A DNA stretch of 64,000 bases from the IMG/VR virus record IMGVR_UViG_3300002179_000002, positions 1 to 64,000 of that record. The stretch is one strand, 5' to 3'. Within the stretch, counting starts at the first letter, position 1. Each line of letters begins with the position of its first letter. This DNA comes from a virus. Lineage: Duplodnaviria; Caudoviricetes. Shown here piece by piece: positions 49,664 to 64,000 of this stretch. Made by a program: the position numbers and the translations under genes. A model generated the notes under the pieces. It was given only the letters and a program-made list of their open reading frames with translations, had not been told where the DNA came from and ran no database searches.

Positions 49664-50695
49664 ATGGATTATCAGAAAATTTATGATCAAATAGTTATTA
49701 GAGCTAGATCTGAGAATAGAAAAAAGAAACAGGGAATTTACTACGAGAATCATCATATTTTGCCCAGAGGCTTAGGTGGTAGTGACATTGATGAAAATTT
49801 AGTTTTGCTTACTGCCAGGGAGCATTATATCTGTCATAGATTACTAGTTGAGATATATGTAGGAAATTCAACATTGGCTTATGCTTTGTGGATGATGGTT
49901 CATTCAAAGACAAAATTTCAACAACGAGATTATAAAATATCTTCGCGAGAATATGAGAGGCATCGAATTATGCATGCCGAGAATGTTTCTAAGAATCAAA
50001 GTGGAGAGAACTCGTCGTTTTATGGCGTTCATAGATATGGAGAGGATTCTTATAGATGGGGGATGACGCATACAGAAGAAACTAAATTAAAAATTAGTAT
50101 TACTAAGACAGGGGTAACAATGTCTGTGGAAGTGAGAGAAGCAATAAGTAAAGGGCATTCGGGCGAGAAAAGCATATGGTTCGACGTTCATAGATATGGA
50201 GAAGATAATCCAAATTTTGGACATTTGTGGACAGAGGAAATGAAACTTAGAGATAAAGAAATAATGCTGAATAAAGAAGATATTATTTGCCCCTACTGTG
50301 GCGTGTCTGGTCATCCCTCTATAATGAAAAGGTGGCATTTCGATAATTGCAAAATGAATCCCAATAGAGAGAAGAAATTATTATTTAAGTGTGATTGGTG
50401 CGATTATACTAGTGAAAACGAAGTTAACATACGTAGAAGGCATAATGATAAATGCAAAGAAAATCCAGATAGAATCATAACGATTTATGAGTGCGAATTC
50501 TGTGGGTTTACTTCAACTGAAAAAGGACACATTACTAATCATAAACGATTTTGTGAGTTAAATCCCGAAGGAAAAGCAAGACCCATAATAACTTGCGAAT
50601 ATTGTGGACTACAGAGTACTAATCAAGCTAATATGACACGCTTTCATGGAGACAAATGCCCCTCTCCAAACAACCCTTTAAATGAACAAGTCTAA
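49664..50695 (+). mobile_element. Free-standing HNH homing endonuclease with NUMOD3-like and four zinc-finger-like repeats
   Basis: HHILPRGLGG...NLVLLTAREHYICH; HTEETKLKIS; four CxxC...H...C units. Confidence 0.8.
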
Positions 50696-51656: not shown

Positions 51657-53168
51657 ATGGAAGATATTTTTAAATCGATTCAAGAGGGTATTAATTTACA
51701 GAGAGAGTGGATCGCGAAGTCGTTTACGATCAATATTGATATCGAAAAGGGAAAGAAGTCTCCTATTGGAGCTATTCACGTTAATAAACAAGGAACTTGG
51801 GTCAAAGTATCTGATACTGGTAATGGTCACAAGGATTGGGTTTTGGAGAAAAAAGTTAAGTCTGAATCTAAAATCGAAGAGAAGGAAGAGTGTTCAAAAT
51901 CAGAATTAAAATCAGAGAAAATTAAAATGAATGAGAGTTTCCCGAAAAATTTTAATATTGCTAGGGAGAATCTGACGACATCAGAAATGTTTCAAAAAAC
52001 ATCAAAAGGAAAATTTAAAGATCAAAATGAACTATATGATAAATTAGGAGGCAAAGAGAATTTAGAGAAAAAATTAAAAAGTTTTATTAATGACAGTGCC
52101 GTTTATATGGCTATTAAGAGTGGAACGCTTATTAGAGAGATTATTAATAAATCAGACGCATTTAAAAATAGTCTTGAAACGGGAAAAGGGTCTTTTAAAA
52201 CGATTGGAGAAGAGAGAACGCTGAAAGAGAAGTTTATTTTTGGCATAGATACAGAAGCTAATTCAAGCGAAGCAGATAATTTTCCAAAATACGGATTTAT
52301 TTCTTCAAAAGAAGAGATGAGTTATGAACCTATCTCCGAAGGAAATTATGGAAATGCATATGTAAAATTTAAGACATCTGCTGTCAAAGATAGAACTAGT
52401 ATTACTTTGGGAGATTCGTTCAATGATAATGGTTCTATCTCGTATAAAGGTCAAATAGATTTAACTTCTGTAGCGCCCCCTACTAAATTAAATGATGTAG
52501 ATGATAAACTCATTTGGGGCATTAATAATAATGATCCTAACTCAGATATGTGGAATAAAATAAATGAAGCTAAAAATATTGATGAATTTACAGAAGCATC
52601 TGTTTCTTCATATATGGAAGCTCAAATATATGGGAAGCTGTCTATAGATGATGTTGATAGCATTTTTGTAAGTTCTATAAAGGAAGCAGATTCTTTTAAC
52701 GCAGCGTTGAAAAAGGCAGGTAGAGAAATAAAAGTTTTGCCTTGTAAATTTGATAATAGATTAAACAATCTTGTGGGTGGTTATCATAGAGGGGATGGTC
52801 CTAGATATCGCGCTTCATTAAATCCAAGTGATATTGATAATCTTGGCGATTATTACATAGATATATTAGCTAATAAATGGCTTGCTGAGTCAGAAGTTGA
52901 AGTTAAGCATAATGCATTACCCTCTGGACTAGTTTTACTTGCTAAAAAATATAATCAGTTTACTAAAGATGAGCAAGGTCGTAAGGTAAGAATTCATTCA
53001 GATATAAGTATGGAAGACAAAAGAAATTGGCTTAAGAAATTCTACGAACTAATGTCTAATGGAGATGATGGAGGAATGCCTTTCTTTTGGCGTGAAGATT
53101 ATAGAAAAACAATAGGAGGATTCACTGATGATGTGATGAATAAGAAACTATTGATAAAATATAAATAA
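51657..53168 (+). CDS. Putative head cargo protein with DUF3626-like domain
   Basis: Leader MEDIFKSIQ...WIAKS...DIEKG; FKNSLETG, PKYG, YG...RTSITLGDS, YMEAQIYG. Confidence 0.65.
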   Translation: MEDIFKSIQEGINLQREWIAKSFTINIDIEKGKKSPIGAIHVNKQGTWVKVSDTGNGHKDWVLEKKVKSESKIEEKEECSKSELKSEKIKMNESFPKNFNIARENLTTSEMFQKTSKGKFKDQNELYDKLGGKENLEKKLKSFINDSAVYMAIKSGTLIREIINKSDAFKNSLETGKGSFKTIGEERTLKEKFIFGIDTEANSSEADNFPKYGFISSKEEMSYEPISEGNYGNAYVKFKTSAVKDRTSITLGDSFNDNGSISYKGQIDLTSVAPPTKLNDVDDKLIWGINNNDPNSDMWNKINEAKNIDEFTEASVSSYMEAQIYGKLSIDDVDSIFVSSIKEADSFNAALKKAGREIKVLPCKFDNRLNNLVGGYHRGDGPRYRASLNPSDIDNLGDYYIDILANKWLAESEVEVKHNALPSGLVLLAKKYNQFTKDEQGRKVRIHSDISMEDKRNWLKKFYELMSNGDDGGMPFFWREDYRKTIGGFTDDVMNKKLLIKYK

Positions 53169-55499: not shown

Positions 55500-56336
55500 A
55501 TGAGAACTGACAGAGAATTGAGAAACATGACCACCATCCAGTTGGGGAAAGAAGCAACACTATTAGGAATAACAAAAACAGGAATAATGGATAAAGTTAA
55601 ATTAATCGAGAAGATCAAAGTAGCTCAGGCTGCAACGCCAGCATCTGATGAATACACTGATCGCAACAGCGATATCATCGCAGCAGATGACAGGGCAAAT
55701 TTCAGGGTAGGGGGCAAGTGGTTCCCTGGCACAATTACAAAATTCAAATCAATCGAGGACGACCAGTATGCGTATGCTCTGCTGGACGGAAGCGAAAAAG
55801 TAAAGATGTTCCACACTATGGACGTCGAATTGGACAAGAACGCAAAATCTAAAAGCAATATGAAGAAGAAAGAAGTTCCTCAGGAGCAAGTTGAGGAAGT
55901 AAAGAAAGAATCAAAGAAGGCAGTGCTCGCTGAGCTCCTTGAGCAGCCATCAGTTGAAGAACAGGAAGTAGAACAGGTAGAAGAGCAAGAAGTTGCCCCT
56001 ATTGAAGTAAAAACATCTACTCGTACCTCGCTGCCTCCAGCATCCATGAAGATCGCAAAAGCAGACGCTCCAGTCATCAAGACGAAAGAGGCTGATAAGA
56101 ACATTGCCAAAGACAAGAAAGCTCCTGCAGCATCGTCAGATGACATGCTTGCATGTATTTTCGCCAAGGGCGATGATGTGACATTCACATCTGCCAAGAA
56201 CTCCAAGCTGGCTTCTAATCAGGAGCTGAAGGGCAAAGTTGTATCTGTCAAGACTGATAAGGGCAAGTACTGGCTGTCCATCAAAGTAGAGGGCTTGGGA
56301 CACTTCATGAAAGAGGCATCTAAATGCCAGAAGTAA
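55500..56336 (+). CDS. Rho-N-like domain protein with SH3/Tudor-like domains and acidic linker
   Basis: MTTIQLGKEATLLGITKTGIMDKVKLIEKI resembles the Rho N-terminal helical motif. Confidence 0.45.
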   Translation: MRTDRELRNMTTIQLGKEATLLGITKTGIMDKVKLIEKIKVAQAATPASDEYTDRNSDIIAADDRANFRVGGKWFPGTITKFKSIEDDQYAYALLDGSEKVKMFHTMDVELDKNAKSKSNMKKKEVPQEQVEEVKKESKKAVLAELLEQPSVEEQEVEQVEEQEVAPIEVKTSTRTSLPPASMKIAKADAPVIKTKEADKNIAKDKKAPAASSDDMLACIFAKGDDVTFTSAKNSKLASNQELKGKVVSVKTDKGKYWLSIKVEGLGHFMKEASKCQK

Positions 56337-56641
56337 ATCAGATCACGGTGACTCCTGACTCATCCAAACTGGGCCAGGAGTTCCTAGATGCTCTCGATAG
56401 AGTGCTCATCACCAGAGCAGATAGAGCAGATCAGTATGGAGACACCTATCTCGGAGACGACTATATGTTCCTCTACTATCAGGTGCTCAACAAGATGAAG
56501 CGATTCAAGCTCCAGATGAGCATGGAGAGCGGACAAGAGCAGATAATCAACAGAGAGGTGGCTCTGGACTCAGCCATCGATTGCGCAAACTATGCAATAT
56601 TCATAATAGCAAAGATTCTGAAAGATGAGAGTGAGAGATAA
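56324..56641 (+). CDS. DUF1599/nucleotide-modification-associated all-alpha protein
   Basis: RADQYGD...KMKR...DSAIDCANYA. Confidence 0.6.
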   Translation: MPEVNQITVTPDSSKLGQEFLDALDRVLITRADRADQYGDTYLGDDYMFLYYQVLNKMKRFKLQMSMESGQEQIINREVALDSAIDCANYAIFIIAKILKDESER

Positions 56642-57866
56642 CTATATCCTCGGCGCAGGCATAAGCGGCCTAATATACGCTTACTACAACAGAGATTTCA
56701 CGATCATATCCCCAGATATCGGGGGCAAGCTCAACAACAAATTCTTCGAGAACATATTCTACCTACACGCCACTCCATTCACCGAGAGGCTGCTCGAGGA
56801 CCTCAAGCTCCCAATAGTAAAGAAGACGCAGCTCATAAAATATGTCAAGTCTGACAAGATATTGACAAAGCTCACGATAGAGGACAAGAAGAAGTTCATA
56901 TCGAAGAAGCTCAACGACCCTGAGTTCGACGCTAAAGACCTCTCGCTCAGCACCAGCGACAACTTCATCTCAGTCTTCGAAGTATCGTTCCAGGACATCC
57001 TATCCAGACTGAGAGAGGGAGTAGAGGTCATAAATGAGACGGTCATCAAGATAACTGAGACAGAGATCATCACTCACGACACTCGATACAAATATGACAA
57101 GCTGGTCTCGACTATCAGCGCCAGAGCATTCTGGGGCATGTACTACCAGCAGAGGACCGAGGAGCTGAAATCTGAGACGATAACCTTCCTATTGTGCGAT
57201 AAGCTACCTGATTGCCTCTCGAAAGAGAAGTTCGACCTCGCTTATTTTGTGGACGCAGATGTCAAGTACACCAGAATATCAAAGCGTAGGAGGGACCAGT
57301 CTGACGCATTCCTATATGAGTTCTCAGGGAGGCTATCTCAAGAGGACTGCGTAGAGCATCTCCCTACTGGAGCAGCAGTGTTGGACTTCTATCACGAGAT
57401 CGATGGACTCATATTCTCTGACAGCAATAACATACCTCCTAACAGAGTGGAGTTTGTGGGCAGGTTCGCCACTTGGGACCACTCATTCAAGCAGCAGGAT
57501 GTCATTGAGAAGGCTCTATCATCATTCGATATGTCCAACATCTGGAACATGCAGAAGAGATTCACTTCCAATTTCGTGGACTTCAACAGCCTGACCGAGA
57601 CTCATCAGAGGGAATCGCTCACGAAGGACTACTTCACAGCCATGATCATAGAGCTATCCGAAGTGATGAATGAGATTAACTACAAGCAGCACAAGCCGAA
57701 GAAGACGGTGGACATAGATCTATTATCCGAAGAGCTCATAGATGCGTTCAAGTACTTCGTCAACATCTGCCTGATGTGGGACATAACTCCCCAGAAGTTC
57801 ATTGAGTTATTCGAGATGAAATCAAAGAAAGTCACAGAGAGATATGAGAAACAAAAACAGCAGTAA
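56625..57866 (+). CDS. FAD-dependent oxidoreductase fused to an all-alpha dUTPase/dCTPase-like domain
   Basis: ILGAGISGL, GRFATW; C-terminal ELSEVMNEINYKQHK...EELIDAFKY. Confidence 0.75.
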   Translation: MRVRDNYILGAGISGLIYAYYNRDFTIISPDIGGKLNNKFFENIFYLHATPFTERLLEDLKLPIVKKTQLIKYVKSDKILTKLTIEDKKKFISKKLNDPEFDAKDLSLSTSDNFISVFEVSFQDILSRLREGVEVINETVIKITETEIITHDTRYKYDKLVSTISARAFWGMYYQQRTEELKSETITFLLCDKLPDCLSKEKFDLAYFVDADVKYTRISKRRRDQSDAFLYEFSGRLSQEDCVEHLPTGAAVLDFYHEIDGLIFSDSNNIPPNRVEFVGRFATWDHSFKQQDVIEKALSSFDMSNIWNMQKRFTSNFVDFNSLTETHQRESLTKDYFTAMIIELSEVMNEINYKQHKPKKTVDIDLLSEELIDAFKYFVNICLMWDITPQKFIELFEMKSKKVTERYEKQKQQ

Positions 57867-57868
57867 AA

Positions 57869-58753
57869 ATGAAAATAGAGAAGATAAAGAGAATGTTTGA
57901 GATTAAACAAGGAGAGATACCGAAGACTAAGTTCATCGACAACCTATCTGCAGTCCAAGTGGACATGATCGACTGGCCAGATCCAGAGAGATTGAAACGA
58001 GTATTCGTGAACATGAGCCAGGCATCTTGGTTTGAGAACTTCTACGACAATGCTACTCCAGAAGACAGGGACGAAGTGGTCAATGACCTATTCTCGGGAA
58101 AGATACTCGGCCAGGGCATGGAGCACCCTCAGTTCTGCTTCATAGTCAAGGGACTCTCCCTGCACGGAACGCACGCCCTAGTCAGGAACAGGATAGGCAT
58201 AGCATACATGCAGCAGTCACAGGCTGTGAAGGATTTTAGGCACTCAGATGTGCTTGTCCCGAGGGCATTCACCAAGCTACCCGACATGCTCAAACGATAC
58301 GAAGAATGGGTCCAACAGGGAAAGAGGCTGTACGCCGACATGCTCGACTCTGGAGAGATAGCAAACACTGACGCAAGGTTCTGCCTCCCTAAGACGATAC
58401 CTTCTTGGATATACGTAGCAGTCGCTCTGCCCACCCTACTGTCGATCTATGGCAAGCGTACCGACTCCCAAGAGGAGCACCCAGAGATGAATGCCATGGC
58501 TGAGCAGATGAGGAATCTGATAGTAGATAAATTCCCATACATGGCGTCCTATTTCGTGTCGCACGATGACAATGGCAAGTGCCTGCATCTTAGAAAGGGG
58601 TACGCCGCAAACTGCATCTTCAAACGAGATGAGGATCACGCTATCGAGGGATATACAGATGAGTGGACATTACACGATAAGACTAAGCAGGAGCTCATGC
58701 TCGACTGCGAGAAGTATAAGGGCTCATACTACATAGGAGGTGATAAGATATGA
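57869..58753 (+). CDS. Divergent ThyX-fold flavoprotein
   Basis: MEH, HALVRNR-x8-S, DARFCLP; lacks the canonical RHR and SxR. Confidence 0.7.
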   Translation: MKIEKIKRMFEIKQGEIPKTKFIDNLSAVQVDMIDWPDPERLKRVFVNMSQASWFENFYDNATPEDRDEVVNDLFSGKILGQGMEHPQFCFIVKGLSLHGTHALVRNRIGIAYMQQSQAVKDFRHSDVLVPRAFTKLPDMLKRYEEWVQQGKRLYADMLDSGEIANTDARFCLPKTIPSWIYVAVALPTLLSIYGKRTDSQEEHPEMNAMAEQMRNLIVDKFPYMASYFVSHDDNGKCLHLRKGYAANCIFKRDEDHAIEGYTDEWTLHDKTKQELMLDCEKYKGSYYIGGDKI

Positions 58754-59607
58754 TGATACAAGACATATACAGGCGCGAGCCATGGAAGATGCTCGTCTGC
58801 TGCATCCTGCTCAACCAGACTACTGGAGTGCAAGTCAAGAAGATGATGAGAGAGTTCTTCAGGACGTTTCCTACTCTCAATGACTTAAGGGACATAGATG
58901 AGAATACTCTGGCAGGAGAGATTGAGAGTTTGGGGATGCAGAATGTGAAGGCAAAGAGAATAAAAGCTTTCGTAGCATCTTTCACTGAAGATGTAGATGT
59001 TATGAAGGACTCAGTCATAGGGTATCCTGGACTAGGGAGCTATGCTTGCGAATCAGCAGATGTCTTCATATGCAGGAATAATGATGTCAAGCCAGAAGAC
59101 AAAGAGATCTCATCCTATCTCTCAAAGATTGAGACGGGAGATGTGTTCGTAGAGGGAATGAGAAAGTATCTAGAATTATGCGGAGTCGAGAGAGTCACTG
59201 TTGGTTGTAGAGTCAAAGAGATACTGAACCACTCGTATCATTTCTTCTCCAACGTATTCTGGCGCATCACAGATGATAGACTTCCCTATGTGAAGGATAA
59301 GTTGATCATGTATAGAACTGCTCTAAGAGACGCCATAAAGCGACTTGAGAGAGACAATACGAGTCGACAGGCGATCATTCAGTTCGATCAGAGCGATCCA
59401 TTGCCAAACTGCACAGTATCTATTCAGTTCCAGATCAAAGACGACATCCTATTCACCACAGTCTACCAGAGGTCTCAGGACATTGATAAAGTGGAGATGG
59501 ACTGCGAGATATTCGCTCTCATGTCTCTCGAAGTCATAAAAGCTATTGAGGGCGTTGATGATTATCGAGTTGCAGTATTTGTTGGAAACTTTCATCTATA
59601 TCTATAG
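58750..59607 (+). CDS. MBD4-like HhH DNA glycosylase fused to a minimal thymidylate-synthase-fold domain
   Basis: PWKMLVCCILLNQT, LGM, PGLGSY, VKPED; then SRQAII, PNC, QRSQD, GNFHLY. Confidence 0.78.
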   Translation: MMIQDIYRREPWKMLVCCILLNQTTGVQVKKMMREFFRTFPTLNDLRDIDENTLAGEIESLGMQNVKAKRIKAFVASFTEDVDVMKDSVIGYPGLGSYACESADVFICRNNDVKPEDKEISSYLSKIETGDVFVEGMRKYLELCGVERVTVGCRVKEILNHSYHFFSNVFWRITDDRLPYVKDKLIMYRTALRDAIKRLERDNTSRQAIIQFDQSDPLPNCTVSIQFQIKDDILFTTVYQRSQDIDKVEMDCEIFALMSLEVIKAIEGVDDYRVAVFVGNFHLYL

Positions 59608-59608
59608 G

Positions 59609-62600
59609 ATGGAGAAACTGATAAGACATCTAGAGGACAACAAGCTGGACTATGAGACTCTCGAGATCAAGAGCAAGTTCAAGATAGCAGATCAGACTTT
59701 CGAGTTCATCTGGCCAGACTCCACTGGCAGGCTATTCGATGATGACCTGCATCTACAAGCAGATGATACAGACTGCGACAATTATGCATTTAGATTCGGT
59801 GGGGACTACTACTACATAAACAAAGCAGACAAGGATAAACCGACATTCAAAGAGCTCAGATATATTGGCCAGTCGAAGAGAGAGATAGAGACTGATGCTT
59901 TTCTTGGAGTCAGAGGGGCGTATGAGATACTCAATGGCTCTAGAATCTATGAGGACTGGTGCGCTAAAGCAAAGTTCTTGGGAGTCAAATCTCTCGGCAT
60001 CATAGAGAAGAACACATTGGCTGGAGCTCTCAAGTTTCAGATTGAGTGCAAGAACCTCGATATCAAGCCGATACTTGGAGCGACTTACACTGTCGTCAGG
60101 AAGGGCGAAGATTACAAGCAGGATATCAAGTGCTTCGCAAAGTCAGAGACTGGCTGGACCAACCTACTGATGATCAACAAAGAGGTCAATGTCATCAACA
60201 ACAAGTTCATATACGAGGATAGGTTCATAGAGCTCTTGGAGGATGTGATAGTGATCGTAGATCCAAAGAGTGGATCATATGATAAATTGGGCAGGATGAG
60301 GAGCTACATGAAGTACTATCAGCTGGATACTGTCATATATAATGATCAGTCCAAAGATCAGGAGTATCTTCTGAATCTAAAGGCGTTTGTCAGAGATGGC
60401 AGCCTGAAGCCGATATTCATATGCGATGCATTCTACCTAGATAGGGATCACAGCCACATAAAGAAGACGCTGAATGGGATATCTGGAGTCAGGGAGTATG
60501 AGTCATCCAACCAGTATTTCAAAGACGCCGATGACTATCTGGCAGAGTTAGAGCTGTTATTCTCTACAGAGGATGAGTCGTTCTACGATATAGCATCAAA
60601 AGCCATCAAGAATGCCAACACACTGTCTGAGATCTGCAACTTCCAGATCGATACAGAGCACTTCTATCTGCCTGACTATGTACTAACAGAGGAGCAGTTA
60701 ACGAAGTATAAGGATAAGATAGACCTATTCTGGGGCCTCATAGGCGAGGGGATGGATGAGAAATGCTCGGACGAGGACAGAGAGAAATATCTGGACAGGA
60801 TTGAGATAGAGTATTCAGTCATCATGAAGGGCCAGAATCTGATTGATTACTTCCTCATCCTATGGGATATCATAGACTGGTGCGGCAAACAGAACATATT
60901 AGTCGGATATGGCCGAGGATCATCTGCTGGAAGTCTCATCGCATACCTATTGGGGATAACCAACATCGATCCATTCGAGTACGACCTCCTGTTCGAGAGG
61001 TTCTTGAATGAGAATAGGGTCAAGAAATCAATCCCTGACATTGACTCAGACTTTGAGGGACTGAGAAGGGATGAGGTAAAGCACTATATGGAGCAGAGAT
61101 TCGGATACGATCAGGTGTGCTCTGTAGGGACATACGGCAACCTGAAACTGAAGATGATATTCACAGACCTTGCAAAACGTAGCAACATTCCTATTCAGGA
61201 GGTCAAGATGATGACAAGCATACTCGGAGAGGGAGAGAAGGACGGCACCGATTGGTCTGAGATATTCCATCTTGCATCTAAGTCTCAGAAACTGAAGGAC
61301 TTTGTGATGCGCAATCCAGACATAGTTCACGACGCTAAATTGTGTCTGATGCAGCCTAGATCTGGATCAGTCCATGCATGCGCCACCATCATCACTCCAG
61401 CAGACAAGGACATCTATCACTGGTTCCCAGTCAAGAAGGTCCTATCTAAAGATGGAGAGGAGCTGCTCGTCAGCGAGTGGGAGGGCATTCAGCTGGACAA
61501 AGCAGGATTCTTAAAAGAAGATATATTAGGTATTCAACAATTGGATAAGTTCGCCAGCTGCATAAAGCTCATAGAGGAGAACAAGGGGATAAAGATCGAC
61601 TTCAAGAAGATACCATTAGATGACGATGCTGTATATAGGTACTTTGGAAAGGGGTGGAACTCTGATGTGTTCCAGTTCGGGACTCAGGGACTGAAGAAAT
61701 ATACTAAAGAATTGAAGCCTGATTCGATGGAAGAGCTCAGCGCAACCAATGCATTATATCGTCCTGGCGCCATGAAATCTAATGCTCACAATGACTTTGT
61801 GATGATTAAATGGGGTATGAAAGAGCCTGAATACGACTATATGCTTGAAAGTGTGACTAAAAAGACTTACGGTCTATATATCTACCAAGAACAGACAATG
61901 AGGGCTGCTCAGGTACTTGGCGGATTCACTTTAGTTGAGGCAGACATGATGAGAAAAGTGATGCTTGGCAGGGGAAAGAAACAGTTTAGAGATCAGTTCT
62001 ATATCTATCATGATAAATTTGTTTTGGGAGCTGTAGCAAATGGATGCGAAGCAAGTGTTGCAGAAAAGATCTGGGATAAGCTAGAAGCGTTTGCGGGTTA
62101 CGGGTTTAATGCCAGCCATGCGGCTGCCTATGCGATAACTGGGTATATTAGTCAGTGGTTTAAGGTCAATCACCCAATCGAATTCTGGACTACAGCATTC
62201 AAGTTTGCTAAAGATGAATTGGTAGCTGATTTCATATCTGAGATCCATGCCACTGGAGCCATAAAGATATCTCCACCAGACATAAATGAGTCGCTGTTCG
62301 ATATGACTTCGAACTTCAAGAAGAACACCATCTACTGGGCGCTCACGAGCATCAAGTCAGTCGGTGGAGTTGCTGCTGAGCAGATCATGAAAGATAGGGA
62401 TGAGAATGGACCATATTTCAGCTTCGAGGAGTTCCTGAGCAGGCACACTTTCAAGGGCAGCAAGGTCAACAAGACTCATGTAGAGAATCTCATATTCTCA
62501 GGTGCATTCGACAAGGTCGAGGAGATAGAGGACTCTCTCAAGCGCAAGCGACTGATAGACTTCTACCGGACTGAGAAGAAGACTAAGATAGATGCCGAGA

Positions 62601-63049
62601 AGGATCTCATGACGCTGAGCGAGAAGGACATCTCCGATGACTGGTGGTGGGACCTCAGGCAGAAGAGGCTGACTGGCATAGCATTCTTCGACTACAAGAC
62701 TATGTGCGACAAGTATCTGACAGATGGAAAGTATCTCGATCAGGATGAGTGGCAGTCAGAGTCGCTAAGTAACATCTACTACTCGATAGGCGGCTACATA
62801 GTAGAGGTGATTGAGCGGACATCCAAGAAGAGTGGCAAATACTGCTCGATCAGGATTGAGAGCAACTACACATTCATCTGGGTGTCTATATTTCCCTGCC
62901 AGTATCAGCAGCTCACAAAATCTGGCATCGAGCTGATAGGACAGGAGGGCAACATCCTACTGCTCACAGGGATGATCAAACTCGACACCTACAAGAAAGA
63001 GAACGCATGCAAGTTCTGGGACAACAGCGAATTAGTAATCTTAAAATAA
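59609..63049 (+). CDS. dnaE: DNA polymerase III alpha subunit (family C)
   Basis: GRGSSAGSL, LLFERFLN, PDIDSDF, KEDILG, VFQF, ALYRPG, YQEQ, YGFNASHA; start re-called at ATG 59609. Confidence 0.95.
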   Translation: MEKLIRHLEDNKLDYETLEIKSKFKIADQTFEFIWPDSTGRLFDDDLHLQADDTDCDNYAFRFGGDYYYINKADKDKPTFKELRYIGQSKREIETDAFLGVRGAYEILNGSRIYEDWCAKAKFLGVKSLGIIEKNTLAGALKFQIECKNLDIKPILGATYTVVRKGEDYKQDIKCFAKSETGWTNLLMINKEVNVINNKFIYEDRFIELLEDVIVIVDPKSGSYDKLGRMRSYMKYYQLDTVIYNDQSKDQEYLLNLKAFVRDGSLKPIFICDAFYLDRDHSHIKKTLNGISGVREYESSNQYFKDADDYLAELELLFSTEDESFYDIASKAIKNANTLSEICNFQIDTEHFYLPDYVLTEEQLTKYKDKIDLFWGLIGEGMDEKCSDEDREKYLDRIEIEYSVIMKGQNLIDYFLILWDIIDWCGKQNILVGYGRGSSAGSLIAYLLGITNIDPFEYDLLFERFLNENRVKKSIPDIDSDFEGLRRDEVKHYMEQRFGYDQVCSVGTYGNLKLKMIFTDLAKRSNIPIQEVKMMTSILGEGEKDGTDWSEIFHLASKSQKLKDFVMRNPDIVHDAKLCLMQPRSGSVHACATIITPADKDIYHWFPVKKVLSKDGEELLVSEWEGIQLDKAGFLKEDILGIQQLDKFASCIKLIEENKGIKIDFKKIPLDDDAVYRYFGKGWNSDVFQFGTQGLKKYTKELKPDSMEELSATNALYRPGAMKSNAHNDFVMIKWGMKEPEYDYMLESVTKKTYGLYIYQEQTMRAAQVLGGFTLVEADMMRKVMLGRGKKQFRDQFYIYHDKFVLGAVANGCEASVAEKIWDKLEAFAGYGFNASHAAAYAITGYISQWFKVNHPIEFWTTAFKFAKDELVADFISEIHATGAIKISPPDINESLFDMTSNFKKNTIYWALTSIKSVGGVAAEQIMKDRDENGPYFSFEEFLSRHTFKGSKVNKTHVENLIFSGAFDKVEEIEDSLKRKRLIDFYRTEKKTKIDAEKDLMTLSEKDISDDWWWDLRQKRLTGIAFFDYKTMCDKYLTDGKYLDQDEWQSESLSNIYYSIGGYIVEVIERTSKKSGKYCSIRIESNYTFIWVSIFPCQYQQLTKSGIELIGQEGNILLLTGMIKLDTYKKENACKFWDNSELVILK

Positions 63050-63053
63050 ATAT

Positions 63054-63377
63054 ATGACAAATCAAGAATTTCTAACCTATCACCAAGAGTGTTTAGATAA
63101 ACTCAAATCTATCGTGGCGTCCAAGAATCACGACTATGCTGGCTTCAGCAAGGACGACTGTTTCGCCAATTTCAAGCTGGTCGAGAATATCGGTATAGCG
63201 TCCGCAGAACAGGGCTTCCTGACTCGGATGATGGATAAGGTGTCTCGAGTCAATTCGTTCGTCCAGCAGGGCGTGCTTAACGTAGCAGACGAGAAGATCG
63301 AGGACACATTGTTGGACCTCGCAAACTACTCGATATTGATGGCTGGCTATATCAAATCAAAGAAAGAGGGAATATGA
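63054..63377 (+). CDS. DUF1599/nucleotide-modification-associated protein
   Basis: KNHDYAG...NF...RMMDKVSR...EDTLLDLANY. Confidence 0.75.
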   Translation: MTNQEFLTYHQECLDKLKSIVASKNHDYAGFSKDDCFANFKLVENIGIASAEQGFLTRMMDKVSRVNSFVQQGVLNVADEKIEDTLLDLANYSILMAGYIKSKKEGI

Positions 63378-63703
63378 AGATCTATCTAGCAATACCCTAT
63401 AGTGGCTTCGAAGAGGAGAGCTTCTCAGTAGCCAATAAGATCGCAGCAGAACTCATGCTAGAGGGTCACATCGTCTTCTCTCCCATCTCGCACACTCATC
63501 CCATTGCTTTATCGGGAGATCTTCCCAAAGGATGGCAGTACTGGAAGACTTTCGATGAATCATTTATCGAGTGGTGCGACCAATTGGCCGTAGTCATAAT
63601 GAAGAATCAGGGCGAGGAGAGAGTTAGAAATAGTCAAGGAATTGCTGGAGAATTGACTCTAGCAGATGTTTATAATAAACCAATCTACTACATAAAAGAA
63701 TGA
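63374..63703 (+). CDS. DUF1937 / nucleoside 2-deoxyribosyltransferase-like protein
   Basis: IYLAIPYS, VFSPISHTH, WCD, S.G...E. Confidence 0.7.
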   Translation: MKIYLAIPYSGFEEESFSVANKIAAELMLEGHIVFSPISHTHPIALSGDLPKGWQYWKTFDESFIEWCDQLAVVIMKNQGEERVRNSQGIAGELTLADVYNKPIYYIKE

Positions 63704-64000
63704 GACTAATAAAACCATATTTCGAGATCATCACTCCTATTAATGGAGAACAGATTCTGAATCAAATTGAACTAGCAGCAAGAACCTGTTATAAGTCAGA
63801 AGATAGAATAGCTCCTGGTTCTGCTGAAAAACTTATCAAGAATGTTTTAATGGCTAGAGGACATAATGCCATGCTTGAATTCGGTGGAATGATTACAGTC
63901 AAATTTGTCTGCGACAGAGGCGTATCACATGAATTAGTTCGGCATAGATTAGCTTCTTTTGCTCAAGAAAGCACAAGATTCTGCAATTATACAGATGATA
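63700..64000 (+). CDS. thyX: FAD-dependent thymidylate synthase, 3' truncated by the window edge
   Basis: Hand-translated: ARTCYKS, GH.AMLE, SHELVRHRLASFAQESTRFCNY (canonical RHRx7S). Confidence 0.9.
   Translation, partial: MRLIKPYFEIITPINGEQILNQIELAARTCYKSEDRIAPGSAEKLIKNVLMARGHNAMLEFGGMITVKFVCDRGVSHELVRHRLASFAQESTRFCNYTDD

Follow-up and report, generated by a model that had tools for sequence, protein, structure and literature searches.

Base modifications in phage DNA decide the success of restriction, CRISPR and glycosylase defenses, and they are a source of enzymes for biotechnology. To our knowledge, all characterized pyrimidine pathways begin with a full-size homologue of thymidylate synthase (TS). 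The subject of the present analysis is a gene at positions 58,750–59,607 (+ strand) of a 64,000-nt stretch of phage DNA (the window), which forms the first 64 kb of the 75,860-bp linear IMG/VR record IMGVR_UViG_3300002179_000002 (CheckV completeness 69%). The gene encodes an MBD4-like DNA glycosylase joined to a minimal TS-fold domain (mini-TS), a TS fold cut to its nucleotide-binding core with the cytosine-type specificity residue kept. The mini-TS gene stands in one module with those for an FAD enzyme and a rewired ThyX, and three gene architectures repeatedly link it to uracil-type excision. The fusion combines two known families, the TS superfamily and the HhH-GPD (helix-hairpin-helix, HhH) glycosylases, and probably belongs to a new, undescribed pathway that alters cytosine in phage DNA.

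The described counterpart of the N-terminal half is human MBD4, in which Gln449 (reading N3/O2) and Tyr540 (in the HhH hairpin) recognize the base, Arg468 occupies the space that the flipped base vacates, and Asp560 is catalytic (PMC3479182). For the TS superfamily, a recent study (Lee et al. 2026, PMC13326640) reports that the substitution N177D gives a preference for deoxycytidine monophosphate (dCMP), that an acidic residue (Asp/Glu) at the Leu143 position marks hydroxymethylases and hydroxylases, and that D169N is the signature of all tested 5-hydroxy-dCMP synthases. The dCMP hydroxylase AfhB of phage HY126, with 217 residues, is likewise a TS homologue of reduced length that gave up folate in a phage DNA-modification setting. 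Physical coupling of excision to the replication of modified DNA also has a described form, the fusion of a uracil-DNA glycosylase (UDG) to A-family DNA polymerases in phages whose genomes carry modified T, SP-15 and YerA41 (PMC13697223). By analogy, these polymerases provide a precedent for glycosylase coupling in modified-DNA phages.

Domain Architecture of the Fusion

The open reading frame (ORF) encodes 285 aa from an ATG start and is tightly coupled to the genes on both sides. A GGAGG ribosome-binding site (58,736–58,740, + strand) lies 9 nt 5′ of the ATG, which overlaps the stop codon TGA of the preceding ThyX-like gene (ATGA), and the TAG stop codon (59,605–59,607) is followed one base on by the ATG of a DnaE gene at 59,609. 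This coupling, together with 17 full-length homologues of matching length and end, rules out an assembly artefact or frameshift.

The N-terminal domain (residues 1–134; 58,750–59,151, + strand) is an MBD4-type glycosylase by three approaches, as the initial annotation had proposed from motifs. Pfam HhH-GPD (PF00730) matches residues 16–109 above its cut-off (E = 2.4e-10), and the top phmmer matches in the PDB are MBD4 glycosylase domains (E = 7.5e-10, residues 2–123), with VKPEDKEI of the fusion opposite VHPEDHKL. An AlphaFold2 model of the fusion, built on a 49-row alignment, has a mean predicted local distance difference test score (pLDDT) of 96.8 and a predicted template modeling score (pTM) of 0.92; its residues 1–134 superpose on MBD4 in VIA-align with Z = 18.6 and a root mean square deviation of 2.1 Å over 131 aligned residues, at 23–26% identity. 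Like MBD4 (PDB 4ofa, 6vjw, 4e9g, 1ngn), the domain has an HhH-GPD fold of ∼130 aa with no Fe-S cluster loop, and it retains the catalytic Asp (Asp117, 59,098–59,100, for Asp560), the Gln (Gln4, 58,759–58,761, for Gln449) and the Tyr (Tyr98, 59,041–59,043, for Tyr540). Unlike MBD4, it is phage-encoded, has no methyl-CpG-binding domain, has a TS-fold partner, and carries Gln (Gln23, 58,816–58,818) in place of the Arg468 "plug."

The C-terminal domain (residues 127–285; 59,128–59,604, + strand) carries the TS motifs PNC (Cys221, 59,410–59,412), RSQD (Arg241-Ser242-Gln243-Asp244, 59,470–59,481), VEMD (Asp251, 59,500–59,502, 7 residues past Asp244) and GNFHLY (Asn280 and His282, 59,587–59,595). Pfam Thymidylat_synt (PF00303) matches residues 192–284 at profile positions 112–211 of 266, narrowly above its cut-off (E = 1.5e-5; 24.8 bits vs 24.3). 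These motif matches are not due to chance. Structural alignment, which had been suggested as a check on the first reading, places model residues 127–285 on TS-family structures with Z = 16.0–16.8. The closest row is AfhB (9iqu; Z = 16.8, 158 aligned), followed by Lactobacillus casei and Staphylococcus aureus TS (Z = 16.3, 158 residues spread over chain positions 1–262) and MilA (Z = 16.3); the AfhB, TS and MilA rows are tied within one Z unit. Because the alignment spans the TS chain, the C-terminal domain as modeled is no fragment; it keeps the full TS core, which runs from helix A to the GNxH strand and has lost the internal helical insert and the C-terminal part. It shares with ThyA, T4 gp42 and MilA the core fold (Z ∼16), the P-x-C nucleophile, RSxD and the GxxH His. 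Those proteins are ∼246–316 aa in length, whereas the mini-TS has only ∼155 aa and ends 3 residues past the His.

Specificity Site, Phosphate Clamp and Missing Folate Elements

Identification of the substrate-discriminating residue relied on a profile of 23 mini-TS sequences (A3), which aligns to TS chains with E = 5e-10 and sets PnC opposite PPC, RSlD opposite RSCD, and gnlH opposite GNAH. In this alignment the mini-TS segment ...RSlDvknkleqD... lies against ...RSCDLGLGVPFN... of TS, with the conserved Asp opposite the Asn of ...VPFN.... The spacing between the Asp244-type residue and the specificity Asp is the canonical +8 in stand-alone relatives and +7 in the fused clade, owing to a one-residue deletion. 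By this alignment Asp251 occupies the position of the TS specificity Asn (Asn177), as in dCMP/CMP-specific members of the superfamily, which would indicate cytosine as the base. The first reading had placed Asp251 at this site, and the three doubts that it attached find no support: the Asp aligns with the specificity Asn, the TS domain is confidently folded in the model (pLDDT 96.8), and the fusion recurs in homologues.

The remaining pocket residues are a mixture of retained and altered positions. The TS phosphate clamp consists of Arg166, Ser167, Arg126′, Arg127′ and Arg21. Arg241, Ser242 and Arg206 (59,365–59,367) are kept in the mini-TS; Gln207 is equivalent to Arg127, a further difference from ThyA and gp42, and no conserved equivalent of Arg21 was identified in the mini-TS family. 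The retained phosphate-binding Arg and Ser speak for a substrate at the mononucleotide level, as does the NTP (nucleoside triphosphate) pyrophosphatase partner described below. At the Leu143 position the fusion has Leu218 (59,401–59,403), a Leu shared by 15 of 21 fused forms, where hydroxymethylases such as gp42 and hydroxylases carry Asp/Glu. The D169N signature is absent as well: Asp244 is kept in the fusion, in 19 of 21 fused and in 18 of 19 stand-alone forms.

No part of the mini-TS matches the TS profile before position 112 or after position 211, and the profile regions thereby absent hold the folate-binding elements. The missing helical insert is the region of Glu58, Trp80 and Tyr94, and the C-terminal lid is missing as well. 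Loss of the folate-binding parts excludes a self-sufficient enzyme using methylenetetrahydrofolate (methylene-THF). Judged on its sequence, the mini-TS is neither a classical TS nor a gp42-type enzyme, because these parts are absent and the chain always ends just past GNxH. Membership in the classical TS, gp42 and AfhB groups was ruled out on the folate segments, the Leu143 position and D169N. The 5-hydroxy-dCMP synthases (HY126 AfhB, 9iqu/9iqc; RB69 gp48; DLP3 gp80) provide the best Z score (16.8) and share N177D; unlike them, the mini-TS has neither D169N nor L143E and is ∼60 residues shorter.

Predicted Dimer

Two-copy prediction of the fusion gave an interaction prediction score from aligned errors (ipSAE) of 0.80 in three runs, as compared with 0.00 for three controls; in calibration, 20 of 30 solved homomers attained this mark, as did 1 of 23 solved monomers. 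At least 98% of contacts are common to the runs, with pLDDT 92. The predicted interface is confined to the mini-TS (residues 148–164, 202–242 and 275–280), and Arg206 of one chain contacts Ser242 and Asn280 of the other, consistent with a shared site of the TS type with its cross-subunit Arg. The score may mirror the model's memory of TS dimers, and it speaks to likeness, not binding.

Homologues and Conservation

Of 550 candidates from a word-indexed search, 22 proteins reached E ≤ 0.001, the query being one of them. Seventeen are homologues of 258–299 aa that cover 88–100% of the query at 46–59% identity, and four proteins of 160–162 aa match the C-terminal half only. An exhaustive HMMER search found 949 representatives at E ≤ 0.001; among the 150 of these that were listed, 9 match both halves, 20 the mini-TS only and the rest the glycosylase only. 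Conservation was read from an alignment (A2) of 21 of 25 fused sequences (P0008, P0009, P0016 and the partial P0030 were left out), 19 stand-alone mini-TS proteins and 9 stand-alone glycosylase-only proteins.

Within the fused forms of this alignment, the glycosylase residues are nearly invariant: Asp117 and Tyr98 are each kept in 20 of 21, and Gln4 in all 18 with an N-terminus, the exception being P0018, whose N-terminus is also absent. At the Arg468 position, 14 of the 21 have Gln, 5 have Arg and 2 have Lys, and the nine stand-alone glycosylase relatives are likewise variable there (R/K/Q). For the mini-TS, the fused counts (n = 21) are 20 for Asp251, 19 each for Cys221, Ser242, Asp244 and Arg206, and 18 each for Arg241 and His282, and the losses are concentrated in P0027, P0029 and P0042. 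These three have lost Cys221 and/or Arg241 and His282 and retain Gln4, Tyr98 and Asp117. In the stand-alone forms, Cys221, Arg241, Ser242, Asp251, His282 and Arg206 are each present in 19 of 19, and Asp244 in 18. Gly145, Glu157, Tyr163, Tyr180 and Lys184, in the stretch of the mini-TS outside the Pfam match, are invariant too. As judged from these patterns, each domain may decay alone in rare lineages, and both are normally under catalytic-type constraint. Every mini-TS in the family stops 1–15 residues past GNxH.

A tblastn search of 50,697 phage records matched 6, each in one domain only and none at ≥80% query coverage; Foldseek against BFVD picked up nothing but full-size TS homologues and HhH-GPD proteins on their own; and no counterpart of the fusion, or of the mini-TS, turned up in cultured phages or among solved structures in the PDB. 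Two scans of representative prokaryote genome contigs found no relative, a scan of viral contigs with profile A4 found nothing, and a similar scan with A5 yielded ordinary TS homologues only (L006–L008), L005 being a full-size TS homologue too. Searches aimed at longer fusions gave near relatives only or two ordinary TS-like proteins. In the ESM Atlas, phage clusters of 170–184 aa with a weak PF00303 signal (scores 0.81–0.82) serve as a lead only. Full-text literature searches, whose coverage leaves out most subscription journals, found no paper on an MBD4/HhH-GPD-TS fusion or a mini-TS.

Recurrent Association with Uracil-Type Glycosylases

The association of the mini-TS with base excision is not limited to MBD4. 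In the 346-aa protein P0151, an N-terminal mini-TS is followed by a C-terminal UDG-superfamily domain (PF03167, E = 9.5e-15), an independent fusion with the domain order reversed relative to the MBD4 fusion. The nearest PDB chains are 4zbx and 1ui0, both family-4 UDGs. At two further loci, the gene beside the module encodes a DnaE with a C-terminal UDG (L010:92–3454, E = 2.9e-20; L003:166–4446, E = 4.7e-23), the C-family counterpart of the published fusions of UDG to A-family polymerases. The L010 DnaE::UDG protein also contains an intein.

The association therefore takes three architectures and draws on two unrelated glycosylase folds. These recurrent glycosylases are the strongest evidence, as read from gene sequences, that the module creates a need for removal of uracil-type bases from DNA. 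L003 holds both DnaE::UDG and MBD4::mini-TS, which suggests that a lesion outside the reach of UDG falls to the MBD4 domain. No UDG-superfamily match was found in the window's own record. As in SP-15 and YerA41, a uracil-type glycosylase of a phage is coupled physically to machinery of replication and nucleotide modification. Unlike in those phages, the glycosylase of the window is of the MBD4 type and is joined to a nucleotide-metabolism domain, not to a polymerase; the polymerase is a C-family DnaE; and a modified base, should there be one, would be a cytosine.

A Conserved Three-Gene Module

The fusion is the last of three consecutive genes whose order, FAD/NTP pyrophosphatase → rewired ThyX → mini-TS, is kept in all six loci read. 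Four of these (the window, L001, L002 and L003) carry the fusion and two (L004 and L010) a stand-alone mini-TS without glycosylase. The module, which adjoins the gene of the replicative polymerase, is the strongest context for the fusion gene; the initial annotation had read this gene in isolation, and its interpretation is partly supported.

The first gene (56,625–57,866, + strand) encodes a 413-aa protein in which an FAD amine-oxidase/protoporphyrinogen oxidase (PPO)-like domain precedes an all-alpha NTP pyrophosphatase (dUTPase_2, residues 303–404, E = 4.8e-6). Across approximately residues 1–300, its Atlas structure has a template modeling (TM) score of 0.79–0.85 to Amino_oxidase/NAD_binding_8 clusters. 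The FAD part has an amine-oxidase/PPO/UDP-galactopyranose mutase-like fold and resembles stand-alone phage clusters of ∼304–314 aa (Atlas score 0.98). An AlphaFold2 model of this protein was poor (pLDDT 48.7, 5-row alignment) and was not used, and phmmer against the PDB gave only chance-level matches to LOV domains (E = 0.025 or worse).

The second gene (57,869–58,753, + strand; Thy1, E = 8.7e-23) encodes a 294-aa ThyX paralogue that lies directly 5′ of the mini-TS in six of six loci and is 55–80% identical across five. It reads RNR...QQSQA where the canonical ThyX of the same phage reads RHR...QESTR, with His replaced by Asn in RHR, the Arg after the conserved Ser lost and one residue inserted. 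Its C-terminal extension bears conserved Cys and His residues (GKCLH...ANCI...H...WTLHDKT).

Sugar-nucleotide genes adjoin the module at some loci: genes for NAD-dependent sugar epimerases in L001 and L004, and one for UDP-glucose dehydrogenase in L004. No epimerase or glycosyltransferase was detected among the window ORFs scanned. Radical-SAM/SPASM genes lie beside the module in L003 (4798–5706) and L004 (530–1492), both GC-rich metagenomic relatives, and none was seen among the window ORFs scanned. A 187-aa ORF lies 5′ of the stand-alone mini-TS of L004 (7349–7912). Its last ∼85 residues resemble the first half of a mini-TS (hhalign probability 90%). The ORF is not a glycosylase, and it could be what is left of a mini-TS copy that was duplicated or disrupted.

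Proposed Pathway and Alternatives

The substrate, the chemistry and any modification of DNA are what we infer from these in silico data, namely the domains, residues, conservation, dimer prediction, synteny and glycosylase recruitment. With slightly less than even confidence, we favor a modified-cytosine pathway that acts at the level of dCMP and is linked to removal of the product of deamination. The gene product would be a homodimeric, bifunctional phage enzyme. Its N-terminal domain would be an active monofunctional glycosylase of the MBD4 type that flips and excises U, T or 5-substituted U opposite G; 5-substituted uracils opposite G are the deamination products of 5-substituted cytosines. 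The bare TS core would dimerize in the TS manner and bind a dCMP-type nucleotide via Arg241, Ser242, Arg206′ and Asp251, with Cys221 attacking C6 of the bound cytosine mononucleotide. Because the folate-binding parts are lost, it would need another cofactor or a partner. The module as a whole would convert dCTP to dCMP and then to a C5-modified dCMP bound for phage DNA, and the glycosylase would clear the deaminated (uracil-type) form of the modified base, or other U/T:G mispairs, around replication.

A more specific version of this pathway is speculative, and on balance we doubt it. In it, the mini-TS and rewired ThyX would form a split hybrid TS-type system, the core giving the Cys nucleophile and the dCMP pocket and one or more flavin enzymes (the ThyX paralogue, the FAD domain) delivering the C5 group; the product would be an undescribed modified cytosine, and the fused MBD4 domain a dedicated proofreader of its deaminated form. 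Should the module make a new cytosine derivative, both thymidylate-synthase families would gain chemistry beyond what is known of them. The module would then also offer a first case in which a modifying enzyme is fused to the repair enzyme that deals with the deaminated form of its product. The initial annotation had advanced the same coupling of a cytosine modifier to repair; the link itself is backed by UDG::mini-TS (P0151) and by DnaE::UDG (L003 and L010), whereas a gp42-like methylene-THF reaction by the domain alone is unlikely with the folate parts absent.

Several observations weigh against the favored pathway. On the TS side, the loss of the folate-binding segments, the Asp at residue 244 (Asn in 5-hydroxy-dCMP synthases) and the Leu at the Leu143 position (Asp/Glu in hydroxymethylases and hydroxylases) leave the mini-TS fitting no characterized dCMP-modifying subtype. 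On the glycosylase side, the Arg468 plug of MBD4 is a Gln. The phage carries a canonical ThyX besides, and neither a dNMP kinase (PF02223) nor a DNA glycosyltransferase was found in the 75.9-kb, 69%-complete record. Finally, the mini-TS site is degenerate in 3 of 21 fused homologues (P0027, P0029, P0042) and the glycosylase in one (P0018), which indicates that the two activities are separable and that the fusion is obligatory for neither.

In a second form of cytosine chemistry, the mini-TS would be a flavin/O2-dependent dCMP 5-hydroxylase of the AfhB/RB69 gp48 kind, with the FAD neighbor supplying or recycling flavin, sugar-nucleotide enzymes decorating the hydroxyl and MBD4 removing 5-hydroxyuracil:G. 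This we regard as quite unlikely. AfhB is the best structural match (Z = 16.8, less than one Z unit ahead of TS and MilA and so a tie), is itself shortened and shares N177D, and an FAD-fold domain in the module and the nearby epimerases (L001, L004) and UDP-glucose dehydrogenase (L004) would suit the scheme; the diagnostic D169N is absent, however, with Asp244 kept in nearly all fused and stand-alone forms, as is L143E (Leu218), the chain is ∼60 residues shorter than AfhB, and the scanned window ORFs gave no epimerase or glycosyltransferase. Supply of uracil and dTMP offers a different account of the same genes: the NTP pyrophosphatase would make dCMP and dUMP, the mini-TS would be a cofactor-free, Cys-dependent deaminase that turns dCMP into dUMP through a 5,6-dihydrocytosine adduct and supplies ThyX, and the glycosylase would clear leaked uracil. 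Such a deaminase requires no cofactor site, which fits the loss of the folate parts, and covalent attack at C6 speeds cytosine deamination in DNA C5-methyltransferases. All module-linked glycosylases are of the uracil type, and neither a Zn-dependent dCMP deaminase (PF00383) nor a trimeric dUTPase (PF00692) was found in the 69%-complete record; that incompleteness makes the missing deaminase, like the missing dNMP kinase, weak evidence. Left unexplained are the second, rewired ThyX (55–80% identity) beside a canonical one, the FAD amine-oxidase-like domain and the radical-SAM/SPASM genes of L003 and L004. Moreover, MBD4-type enzymes require G opposite the target, whereas misincorporated dU pairs with A, and we consider the account unlikely.

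Degeneration of the mini-TS in P0027, P0029 and P0042, with Gln4, Tyr98 and Asp117 intact, is what would be expected if the domain served in the fusion mainly as a dimerization or nucleotide-sensing scaffold for the glycosylase and not as a catalyst, and the predicted dimer interface lies wholly within it. We judge this very unlikely in view of a catalytic set that shows no change in the remaining 18 fused forms or in any of the 19 stand-alone forms (25–47% identity), and of the stand-alone mini-TS proteins (L004, L010) that hold the same module position without a glycosylase. The suggestion in the initial annotation that the glycosylase attacks unmodified DNA drew no direct support. A two-step weapon on unmodified host DNA, in which an opened TS core deaminates a flipped C to give U:G and the fused glycosylase excises the product, strikes us as highly improbable. 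In-duplex deamination of C does give U:G, a substrate of MBD4-type and UDG enzymes; the pocket would be opened by the missing TS lid elements and by a poorly conserved residue at the Tyr209 position (Y, F, L, I, H or R), and both independent fusions join DNA-flipping enzymes. Against this, we know of no TS-fold enzyme that acts on polynucleotides, the phosphate-clamp residues, which are characteristic of a site for mononucleotides, do not vary, the active site sits at the predicted dimer interface, and the module holds an NTP pyrophosphatase and occurs without the glycosylase fusion (L004, L010).

Neighboring Genes and Other Features of the Record

Downstream of the fusion, the genes of nucleotide metabolism and replication continue on the same strand. 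The DnaE-type replicative polymerase (59,609–63,049, + strand) starts 1 nt past the fusion stop and has no UDG domain here; its closest relatives are from Cellulophaga, Tenacibaculum, Chryseobacterium and Bacteroides phages (34–41% identity), which makes Bacteroidota the probable hosts of this phage clade. It is followed by a DUF1599 ("nucleotide modification associated domain 1") protein (63,054–63,377, +; E = 1.3e-5), a DUF1937/nucleoside 2-deoxyribosyltransferase-like protein (63,374–63,703, +; E = 5.4e-12), whose family is also found 3′ of the fusion gene in L002, and the start of the canonical ThyX gene (63,700–64,000, +; Thy1, E = 3.3e-37), which ends at 64,416 in the record.

The genes of the record lie nearly all on the + strand and include a terminase, a DnaB-like helicase, a primase-like protein, the DnaE-type polymerase and RecA. 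The G+C content is 0.35 in positions 1–56,000 and 0.45 in the nucleotide-metabolism and DnaE block (56,324–64,000). A 503-aa ORF at 51,657–53,168 has a weak match to DUF3626 (E = 2.8e-5, below cut-off). Between the DnaB-like helicase and primase-like genes, a 343-aa ORF (49,664–50,695) contains NUMOD3 and zinc-ribbon motifs and is probably homing-endonuclease-like.

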